A stretch of 64,000 nt of DNA from Escherichia phage vB_EcoM_G2494: sequence record MK327935.1; one strand, written 5' to 3'. The notes under the pieces are model-generated. The model was given only the letters and a program-made list of their open reading frames with translations. It had not been told where the DNA came from and did no database searches. Within the stretch, counting starts at the first letter, position 1; every line of letters begins with the position of its first letter. The translations under genes were made by a program, and so were the position numbers. Positions 54,908 to 56,953 of the stretch are shown piece by piece.

Positions 54908-56655
54908 GCGTGATTGAAGGGATTAACGCAATGGCGACGGATGAACACCCGCTACATTTAGCGCATCCGTCTACACTAGAAAATAAAATTGATTCAAATG
55001 GTATTGAATGGATTTTATCAAAGCATGATGATAAATGGTATCCTAAAAAGTTTTCTGACTATCTGAAATTAAACAGACCGCAGAAAATAAGGATGCAAAG
55101 CACTGATCCAACAAATTATAAGTTCTTTAAAGATAGTGACAATATTCGCACGCGGTATATGCGATTAAAGAACTTGCGAAGGGCGAATATTAAAACTCAG
55201 TATACCCCTGAAATGATCGCGGAGTGGAAACGATGCCGTAAAGATATTGTATATTTCGCCGAAACCTATTGCGCAATTACACACATCGACTACGGTACAA
55301 TCAAAGTACAATTGCGTGATTATCAGAAAGATATGCTTAAGATCATGCATGAAAACCGCATGAGCGCACATAAACTCAGCCGTCAGCTAGGGAAAACGAC
55401 CGCTGTAGCAATATTCCTTGCTCACTACGTTTGCTTTAATAAAGACAAAGCGGTAGGTATACTGGCACACAAAGGATCAATGGCAGTTGAAGTTCTAGAA
55501 CGTACTAAACAAGCAATTGAACTATTGCCGGACTTCTTACAGCCTGGAATTGTTGAATGGAACAAGAAATCAATTGTTCTTGAAAACGGTTCAAGTATTG
55601 GTGCTTATGCGTCGTCTCCTGATGCCGTGCGTGGTAACTCTTTTTCGTTTATCTACATTGACGAATGCGTTAGCGGCTTGACCAAAGTTACACTACGTGA
55701 TAAACTAACAGGTGAGATTAAAGAATACACTATGTTAGAGGTTAAGATGATGGCTATTCAGCAAAAGTTGAATAAAATTAAAGAGTTATTACTGCCGCAC
55801 GCAAAAAATCCAAACTTGACTCGCGGTTGGGTTCCTGGCGTAACTATGGATATGTTGGAAGAATACAAAGAGTTTTTCGACACACATTTTCATAAAACCG
55901 AATCCATGAGAGAGTTTATCGCATGTGTAACAAATGATATTCTGGTTCGTCCAGTTTGCTCTACGAAAGGATGTGGTTGTCGTGTGGAATTAAGCAAGAA
56001 TGGTCCATACTATAAGGATAAATGCCATAACTACTGCACAGAAAAATTGCCTGGGCGCTTAGGGAAAATATCATCAAAAATGGTTATCTTCCGTCGTTTT
56101 GAGTGTCCAGAATGCGGGATGTATGCTGTTAAAAATGAGGGTTATCTTTGCCGTAAATGTGGTTACGCAAAACAAGGCGAGGCAATGAAACGTCTATACG
56201 TCGAAAACGGCGATGAAATGCGCAAAAAGTGCAACGGTAAGAAAACACCAGAACAAAGGGCTAAACAGTCCGAGCAAGTTAAACAGCGTATTCTGAATGG
56301 TGAATTTACTCCTAAGACGACTAACCGTCTTAATCACAATCGCATTAAGTATGATGGTCATAACTTTCGTAGCTCATGGGAACTATCTTTCTATAAAGAT
56401 ATGAAAGCTAAAGGCGTTAATATTGAATATGAAACGCTTCGTGTTACATACAAATTTAAAGGAAAGAATCACGTTTATATTACGGACTTCGTAGATCACG
56501 ATAATAAGATCGTTTATGAAGTTAAGCCTAAGCGACTTGTTGAAGATCCAAAAACAATGGCGAAAGAACACGCCGCTATAGAATGGTGTAAAGAAAACGG
56601 ATATACTTTCGAATATATTCACGAGGATTATATTAATGAACTTTTGGAATCTTGA
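54904..56655 (+). CDS. 17: terminase large subunit N-terminal part (ATPase to Walker B) fused to intein-like N-region and nuclease-like domain
   Basis: 583 aa; residues 1-254 match T4 gp17 through SRQLGKTT (Walker A) and FIYIDE (Walker B); then [12 protein letters not shown]... insert with zinc-ribbon-like Cys pairs and a gp4-like nuclease motif block; stops at 56655. Confidence 0.8.
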
Positions 56656-56953
56656 CGGATTCGAAGTTCTCACCGAAAACGGTTTTAAAGATTTTGATGG
56701 CATAAAAGAAACATTTGGTATGATCTGGAAACTAACATTTAGTGATGGATCATACATTGAATGCGCAGAAAGCCATAAATTAAAATCAAGTGACGGCTTT
56801 TTCATTGAAGCCGATGATATAGAGGCTGGATTCGTTACGTCTTCCGGCCTTACTGTCATTAGTAAAGATTATGTTGGTGAAGACTTTTTATACGATCTAA
56901 CTAATGTTGCCGATGGCAACCATTACACTACAAACAATGTAGAATCTCACAAT
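55666..56953 (+). mobile_element. intein-like insertion in terminase large subunit gene (1288 nt, not a multiple of 3; possibly split)
   Basis: T4-colinear extein junctions IYIDE|C...SHN|CAF; insert starts with Cys, ends His-Asn, followed by Cys; placed right after Walker B. Confidence 0.65.

Follow-up and report, generated by a model that had tools for sequence, protein, structure and literature searches.

In the 64,000-nucleotide (nt) stretch of Escherichia phage vB_EcoM_G2494 analysed here (sequence record MK327935.1; the window), gene 17, which encodes the terminase large subunit (TerL), is interrupted after the codons for FIYIDE by a 1288-nt insert (55666-56953). Judged from sequence comparisons and structural models, this insert makes gene 17 a 'fractured gene' with a class-1 intein that is naturally and atypically split. 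We consider it likely, with a probability of about 0.8, that gene 17 is a fractured gene with a split intein of the AceL-TerL/GOS-TerL type, that trans-splicing yields TerL, and that the nuclease fused to the intein is of the homing type. Splicing and homing are what we infer from the anatomy, homologies, conservation and selection described below. Fractured genes with an atypically split TerL intein have been known as a kind since 2009/2014. As read from the sequence, the departure from it is that the nuclease is fused in frame to the N-terminal intein fragment (IntN) instead of being a free-standing gene.

The source is a Krischvirus (RB49-like, Straboviridae) phage of E. coli, and the region is 98.7% identical to phage kaaroe. 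Excision of 55666-56953 leaves exactly 1824 nt that are colinear with RB49 gene 17, with 31 mismatches and 0 indels; the break and the insert length given by an earlier reading of the letters (the sequence-only reading) are thus exact to the base. The parts of gene 17 and of the insert described here all lie on the plus strand. The first open reading frame (ORF1, 54904..56655) encodes an N-precursor of 583 amino acids (aa) and 68 kDa, in which TerL residues 1-254, IntN and a putative homing-type nuclease follow each other in a single frame. Its N-extein (54904..55665) is the TerL ATPase's N-terminal part up to Walker B and the Glu of FIYIDE (Pfam Terminase_6N positions 5-106; colinear with nt 1-762 of RB49 gp17). 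The second open reading frame (ORF2, 56636..58015) lies in the +1 frame relative to ORF1, overlaps it by 20 nt (56636..56655) and encodes a C-precursor of 459 aa and 52 kDa, composed of the C-terminal intein fragment (IntC, 106 aa, 56636..56953) and TerL residues 255-607. The C-extein (56954..58015) starts at Cys+1 and holds the remaining ATPase domain and TerL's RNase H-like nuclease domain (Pfam Terminase_6N positions 105-213 and Terminase_6C; nt 763-1824 of RB49 gp17). The ORF1 stop at 56655, the ORF2 ATG at 56636 in another frame and the 106-aa length of the C-side piece all agree with what had been read before. The first codon of the insert is TGC for Cys1 (55666-55668), and its end, ...VESHN, is followed by TGC for Cys+1 (56954-56956; CAFIKNW), so that the class-1 residue pattern claimed for the insert is present at both ends. 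In the TerL of Tequatrovirus HY03 the insertion point corresponds to residues 256/257, between the Glu that ends Walker B and Cys+1. We take this Glu to be the catalytic carboxylate of T4 gp17; if so, neither TerL half holds a complete ATPase.

IntC resembles inteins in both sequence and predicted fold. A phmmer comparison matched it over its full length to PDB entry 6DSL_B ('Consensus engineered intein CatC'; E 5.7e-13), and a profile of nine family members retrieved only inteins from the PDB (6DSL_B, 2e-25; gp41-1, 5e-9; VidaL, 2e-8; DnaX (Spl), 1e-4). An AlphaFold2 (AF2) model of IntC with 15 extein residues reached a mean confidence (pLDDT) of 82. Its best structural match was again 6DSL_B (TM 0.76-0.78, root-mean-square deviation 2.0 Å), and all matches with E ≤ 0.001 were inteins or an intein-like domain. 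Cys1 and Cys+1 are invariant in the family alignment, as is His47 of block B (56774); block F and the His105-Asn106 of block G, followed by Cys, are present at the C-terminal end. The Thr/Ser position of the block B TxxH motif is Ala44 in the window only (GCA, 56765-56767), with Ser or Thr in kaaroe, phiS, JK32, GoldenSnicker and all distant relatives; residue 41 is Ile in the window and Leu in the others.

The two halves also fit together as one module. IntN (55666..55770, ~35 aa, block A only) aligns with IntN of HY03, phiR1-RT, PspYZU05 and Thanatos-2 as well as with the initial ~34 residues of mini-inteins that stand in cis. IntN plus IntC are colinear from end to end with contiguous mini-inteins of 136-142 aa in Vibrio phage vB_VmeM-32 and Desulfovibrio phage 7757, and also with cis mini-inteins of P0022 and P0245; all of these occupy the same DE|C site. 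The intein of P0245, a sister of Thanatos-2, is nearly identical to that of Thanatos-2 and carries no nuclease; since it stands in cis, the Hint module of this family is demonstrably in use. The fragments are split between blocks A and B, with ~35 aa of IntN homology and a 106-aa IntC that has its own Shine-Dalgarno sequence (SD) and ATG. On this sequence evidence the two TerL proteins must almost certainly be joined by a naturally split intein. The class-1 intein proposed by the sequence-only reading consists of two polypeptides that are initiated independently and need trans-splicing, and the Hint sequence and modelled fold, the catalytic residues and the conserved SD and ATG speak for this proposal.

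The split layout is not confined to one record. The whole 3112-nt region occurs in one piece in five other phage records (kaaroe, vB_Eco_SAP, TB34, phiS and JK32), and in a sixth carrier, GoldenSnicker, it spans the ends of the record; where carriers have a stated origin, it is Denmark, China, Ireland or the UK. Four copies (window, kaaroe, phiS and JK32) align with 0 indels, and the overlap region is invariant. The cluster of the ORF2 product at 90% identity holds 31 sequences. Moreover, the fused two-gene layout recurs at 57% identity across the insert in a diverged locus (L013) and at ~40% in Thanatos-2, a phage of Shewanella. Because the layout is found without indels in six other Krischvirus genomes and is shared by two diverged lineages, we conclude that the split is no sequencing error. 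An uninterrupted gene 17 of 1824 nt is present in ~55 other Krischvirus records. In the public annotations of MN850574, PP449093, MK962753, MT457553 and OR896832, ORF1 and ORF2 appear as 'hypothetical protein', 'DNA packaging enzyme' or twice as 'terminase large subunit', and none of these records mentions an intein.

Initiation signals at the start of IntC are conserved across lineages. A GAGGA (56623..56627), placed within conserved ...ED... codons of the nuclease C terminus, lies 8 nt upstream of the ORF2 ATG at 56636, and GAGGA plus ATG are kept at the nuclease/IntC junction in the window, L013, Thanatos-2, HY03, phiR1-RT and PspYZU05. The frame offset is not conserved: it is +1 in the window and L013 and +2 in the other four, with overlaps of 20 nt for +1 versus 13 nt for +2. 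This combination of a conserved SD and ATG with a shifting offset fits independent or coupled initiation of ORF2, and it argues against a conserved programmed frameshift, since overlap and offset vary while SD and ATG stay. The view that the second half is independently translated, and not the product of an indel in the reads, is therefore borne out by the recurrence of the layout without indels and by the SD and ATG kept in all lineages. The accompanying remark that ORF2 uses the same initiation context as many genes of the window holds only loosely: an SD-like element precedes 51 of the 75 window ORFs of at least 100 aa, but the specific arrangement GAGGA-N6-9-ATG occurs seven times on the plus strand, four of them where long ORFs begin. 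The only T4-type late promoter (TATAAATA) is at 58011, before gene 18, and none was found inside the insert; between the ORFs there is neither a terminator nor an excess of sigma-70 promoters.

The N-side polypeptide does not end with IntN. No stop codon occurs from IntN to 56655, which gives an intein N fragment of 329 aa, composed of ~35 aa of IntN and ~295 aa of nuclease, without a spacer; the stop after 25-40 aa at which IntN of the AceL-TerL/GOS-TerL type ends is absent from the window. Residues ~480-583 of ORF1 match Pfam TnsA_N (PF08722) with 34.5 bits against a cut-off of 26.5. The residues of an E...D...ExK pattern, E493 (56380), D528 (56485), E539 (56518) and K541 (56524), are invariant in 12 homologues. 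The AF2 model of this PD-(D/E)xK core (56338..56652) has pLDDT >90, and the best Foldseek matches are I-Bth0305I (3r3p, TMt 0.61), then TnsA (1t0f, 1f1z), then Vsr, with a probability of 1.00, at 15-16% sequence identity and weak E-values (5e-3 to 2e-2). The nuclease-like domain suspected earlier on this polypeptide is thus recovered by profile, residues and fold. The preceding part (55771..56337) runs in the AF2 model from helices through a Cys-rich module (VCSTKGCGC...CHNYC) and a zinc ribbon (CPECG...CRKCG, 56086-56175) to further helices, and is presumed to bind DNA. The ~100 aa that separate IntN from the zinc ribbon share homology with the N domain found in free-standing nucleases of two metagenomic loci (L034 and L053).

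Substitutions show that the fusion is translated. Between the window and phiS, the insert read in the ORF1 frame has 29.5 synonymous and 8.5 non-synonymous differences, giving a ratio of non-synonymous to synonymous rates (dN/dS) of 0.06. The linker region alone has 9.5 synonymous versus 1.5 non-synonymous differences, and the segment of intein aa 36-140 (segment 'X') has a dN/dS of 0.04. When the same substitutions are read in other frames, nearly all are non-synonymous. Against L013, synonymous sites are saturated and amino-acid identity is 52-62%. By this measure the fused nuclease is under purifying selection, in frame with IntN. In L013 and Thanatos-2 there is no SD-preceded in-frame internal start for a nuclease, and hence, at least in these two, the nuclease must come as part of the TerL-N precursor. 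The fusion to IntN was seen only in the clade of the window, in L013 and in Thanatos-2. A scan of IMG/VR with the nuclease profile gave 80 metagenomic loci, ~60 of them free-standing ~300-aa genes away from TerL and 14 within terminase fractured loci, and among the 80 no further IntN-fused locus was found. By sequence and model, the nuclease is most likely the homing endonuclease of the element.

Mobility of the element is suggested by its distribution. It is present in 6 of 64 matching records, and where it is missing the absence is exact at the site. The JK32 insert is 99.6% identical to that of the window, compared with 90.5% for the adjacent C-extein flank. Among 1824 extein positions, only nt 759 of the gene (window 55662, 3 nt before the insertion point) differs consistently between four intein-plus and seven intein-less alleles, being a synonymous C (GAT>GAC) in the former. 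Patchy presence, the contrast of insert and flank in JK32 and the marker at nt 759 fit homing with short co-conversion of sequence. The change at 55662 might mark co-conversion or belong to the target of the nuclease.

According to the mechanism that we propose, one late transcript would give rise to two precursors: ORF1 would be translated into TerL(1-254)-IntN(~35 aa)-nuclease(~295 aa), and ORF2, started independently at ATG 56636, into IntC(106 aa)-TerL(255-607). Docking of IntN on IntC would complete the Hint fold. Splicing in the class-1 manner would then begin with an N-S acyl shift at Cys1, pass through trans-thioesterification to Cys+1 and Asn106 cyclisation, and end with an S-N shift, thereby joining FIYIDE to CAFIKNW. 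The predicted product is a TerL of 607 aa and 69.6 kDa, equal in length to the intein-less protein, and the by-product would be IntN-nuclease (38.6 kDa), probably still bound to IntC (11.9 kDa). The nuclease would cut intein-less gene 17 of co-infecting phages, and repair would copy in the 1288-bp element.

Other explanations of the interrupted gene have to be weighed against this mechanism. An insert length that is no multiple of 3, and the 'hypothetical protein' annotation of ORF1 in kaaroe, might suggest a decayed intein or an assembly indel, with the split gene non-functional or misassembled. The sequence-only reading had kept this alternative, and we reject it as having practically no chance of being right, because seven independently sequenced, plaque-forming phages have an identical junction, the layout is kept at about 40-57% identity in two other lineages, all parts are under purifying selection, the splicing and nuclease catalytic residues are all intact, and no other terminase large subunit was found in this part of the window. 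The same overlap could be imagined as a site of programmed +1 frameshifting (for example at CUU UUG or UCU UGA C), which would produce a 1,037-aa precursor with a contiguous, nuclease-containing intein of 435 aa that splices in cis. The overlap does contain CTT TTG and a UGA-C stop context, and a shift by a single base would join the two frames. What persists among relatives, however, is GAGGA and ATG and not the +1 offset, the CTT-T motif is absent in L013, RNA around the ORF2 start has no notable or significant predicted structure (z = -1.0), and the route is impossible in relatives that have three genes. The frameshift site of prfB (release factor 2) has a stimulatory SD, spaced otherwise than the ~13 nt that separate GAGGA from the candidate slip site here. 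We therefore hold frameshifting to be highly improbable.

TerL might also work as two pieces without splicing, with the intein halves holding the fragments together non-covalently in a heterodimeric enzyme. Halves of split inteins bind tightly, and genes split by nucleases without inteins can remain functional (Aeh1 nrdA, cited in the literature). On the other hand, the splicing residues C1, His47, H105-N106 and C+1 are conserved family-wide and are unnecessary for mere association. The break also interrupts the ATPase core, where it separates the Walker B Glu from the motifs that follow, so that ~440 aa of foreign protein would be left at the active site. Homologues splice in vitro (PMC11766414), and near-identical inteins stand in cis in sister phages, where splicing is obligatory. 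Hence, a two-piece enzyme seems very unlikely to us. A further proposal, compatible with trans-splicing, is that in Krischvirus the nuclease is also made alone, by initiation at Met28/Met29 of the intein, as a free ~35-kDa protein to which the fusion is incidental. The sequence GAGGTTAAGATGATG at 55738-55752, within IntN, places GAGG 5-8 nt upstream of ATG ATG, a good SD spacing for a possible, non-conserved start. The two Met are replaced by Gln-Leu in L013, Asn-Leu in Thanatos-2 and Ala-Leu in HY03, the first two of these offer no other SD-preceded start in frame, and the GAGG itself stems from conserved Leu-Glu-Val codons of IntN; we consider this proposal unlikely while giving it some weight. 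A conserved internal nuclease start was rejected as a candidate, being absent outside Krischvirus.

Several observations weigh against trans-splicing and homing as we propose them. Pfam and NCBIfam scans of IntN plus IntC found no Hint domain, and IntN alone, which is too short a query, had no match in the PDB. We attribute the former result to the sensitivity of the models and not to absence of the domain, because Pfam also misses a cis mini-intein of the same family (E 0.13). The profile search of both halves for Hint similarity, which the sequence-only reading had suggested, is answered for IntC, through 6DSL_B and the family profile, while Pfam and NCBIfam are blind to the family and IntN alone gives no match. 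That reading had also named lack of Hint similarity as grounds for giving up the intein; used with Pfam or NCBIfam, such a rule would misfire. Ala44, three residues before His47, could either delay the first step of splicing or be neutral variation among strains. A domain of ~295 aa on an IntN of ~35 aa might hinder docking, given that AceL-TerL, GOS-TerL and Cat have a bare short IntN. The GAGG and ATG ATG inside IntN could yield some free nuclease in Krischvirus, to judge from the sequence, and the evidence for homing comes from a small sample, 4 versus 7 alleles.

The intein family is spread widely among phages. A tblastn search found IntC homologues in 83 phage records, whose phages include Krischvirus, Tequatrovirus HY03 and relatives, Tegunavirus, Jiangsuvirus, Shewanella, Vibrio and Desulfovibrio phages and many Campylobacter phages. 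An exhaustive HMMER search with IntC yielded 486 representative clusters; for the majority of the best 150, the match begins at residues 2-15, which indicates that most of these are naturally split in the same atypical way. Related cultured phages show a series of layouts, from the cis mini-intein through the fused two-gene and the three-gene forms to dispersed halves. In HY03, phiR1-RT and PspYZU05 there are three genes: one for TerL-N-IntN, in which IntN stops after 41-43 aa, one for a nuclease of 199 aa and one for IntC-TerL-C. At the junction of such relatives (L006-L008, ~2470-2500), the ATG of the 199-aa nuclease, which is without the ~100-aa N module, lies 14 nt inside the end of the IntN ORF. 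We propose, speculatively and from sequence comparison, that the HY03 form may derive from the fused form by deletion, because Thanatos-2 groups with HY03 in IntC and in the junction. Distant metagenomic loci have three genes with a nuclease of ~300 aa, and L034 and L053 among them share the ...DE|C site.

Other arrangements were seen in the same family. In Campylobacter phage CPX (L009, 2998-4326) the gene for IntC-TerL-C comes after that of a neck protein and has no TerL-N in its vicinity, the halves being in separate loci, and the TerL ORFs of Campylobacter phage CP21 (L012) contain several copies of this intein family. TerL of Vibrio phage vB_VmeM-32 (L010, 1102-3216) and of P0245 begins with an IntC-like piece that ends SHN|TT at Walker A, and is hence split there; both also hold the cis mini-intein at Walker B, so one family occupies two P-loop motif sites of one gene. 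The Krischvirus phages MIZ4, MIZ5, FL15 and AV108 have a different, contiguous intein of 331 aa at Walker A of gene 17 (GK|T, after codon 164). In MIZ4 (L004) it covers 493-1485, corresponding to window ~55395/55396; it starts with Ala, ends HN|T and has LAGLIDADG_3 above the Pfam cut-off. Krischvirus gene 17 thus has three alleles, which are empty, with a Walker A cis intein or with a Walker B split intein.

Atypically split terminase inteins are valued tools of protein engineering and have so far been described from metagenomic fragments. Here the same family resides in an essential gene of culturable, engineerable E. coli phages, whose close relatives have no intein, a different LAGLIDADG intein or a three-gene version. 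This coliphage system would allow trans-splicing in vivo, its cost to packaging and the homing of a fractured gene to be directly measured. The conservation of the IntN-nuclease fusion in three lineages bears on how inteins recruit endonucleases and on the origin of split inteins. Moreover, if the intein splices, an atypical split intein tolerates ~295 aa of cargo on the intein side of IntN. In the open-access literature, we found no report of the IntN-nuclease fusion layout and no description of split inteins in Krischvirus or Tequatrovirus terminases. A 2024 paper stated that no inteins were reported in coliphages (PMC11162368), 'intein with inserted endonuclease domain' and 'split intein' have been treated as alternatives (PMC7891396), and the IntN-fused split layout is missing from a survey published in 2025, whose non-canonical intein-nuclease arrangements include in-frame HNH, antisense and out-of-frame nucleases.

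AceL-TerL and GOS-TerL are natural, atypically split terminase inteins with IntN of 25-37 aa and IntC of 104-115 aa, and Cat is their consensus (Thiel 2014, Bachmann & Mootz 2015 and Stevens 2018, reviewed in PMC11766414); for the type, the ranges are 25-40 aa and about 104-122 aa. AceL-TerL (25/104 aa, Cys1/Cys+1), GOS-TerL and Cat trans-splice in vitro (PMC11766414). The window intein shares with them a T4-type TerL host and the placement of the split, which leaves block A alone on IntN and blocks B, F and G on IntC; with AceL-TerL it also shares Cys1/Cys+1. Unlike them, which came from metagenomes and were characterised as isolated short pieces, it resides in cultured, genetically tractable coliphages, and its IntN runs on in frame into the ~295-aa nuclease. 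The cultured T4-like phages with three-gene loci (HY03, SG1, JEP6, phiR1-RT, TG1 and PspYZU05) have homologous IntN, nuclease core and IntC (46-62% identity), the same DE|C insertion site and SD plus ATG at IntC. They differ in the stop after 41-43 aa of IntN and in the separate 199-aa nuclease, which lacks the ~100-aa N module and overlaps both neighbours. I-Bth0305I and TnsA are the best structural matches of the nuclease core, in line with its Pfam TnsA_N assignment, but share only 15-16% sequence identity with it.

For a gp17 terminase locus, Dassa 2009 described a split intein 'fractured at an unusual point', whose unusually long IntC contains every motif apart from N1 (PMC2677866). In such fractured genes IntN is followed by a stop, by a spacer of 27-51 nt that often has a hairpin or late promoter, and by a nuclease with its own start (PMC2677866). 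The window has in common with them a host gene broken by a split intein, a nuclease between the halves on one strand, and an overlap of the nuclease 3' end with the IntC start (6-69 bp theirs, 20 bp here). It differs in having no stop after IntN, no spacer and no separate nuclease start, so that it conforms to their definition on the 3' side only; their nucleases are GIY-YIG or Vsr-like, whereas the present one is TnsA_N-like with a classical E...D...ExK. Canonical bifunctional inteins, such as the Walker A LAGLIDADG intein of MIZ4, likewise have the nuclease translated within the intein polypeptide. However, they are single chains that splice in cis, with the nuclease between blocks B and F; in the window it lies between blocks A and B and is joined on the N side only, and the intein is split. 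Step IIIa of the Dassa 2009 model is the in-frame capture of a nuclease through loss of its flanks (PMC2677866), and by analogy the window looks like a half-completed capture of this kind. We tentatively suggest, at somewhat less than even odds, a split bifunctional intein in which the nuclease is a covalent domain of IntN, and excised IntN-nuclease and IntC stay together as a two-chain intein-endonuclease. If this is true, the layout would be a selected, stable state, and would be the intermediate that step IIIa predicts and that Dassa 2009 did not observe, linking a fractured gene with its free-standing nuclease to a contiguous intein that contains a nuclease domain.

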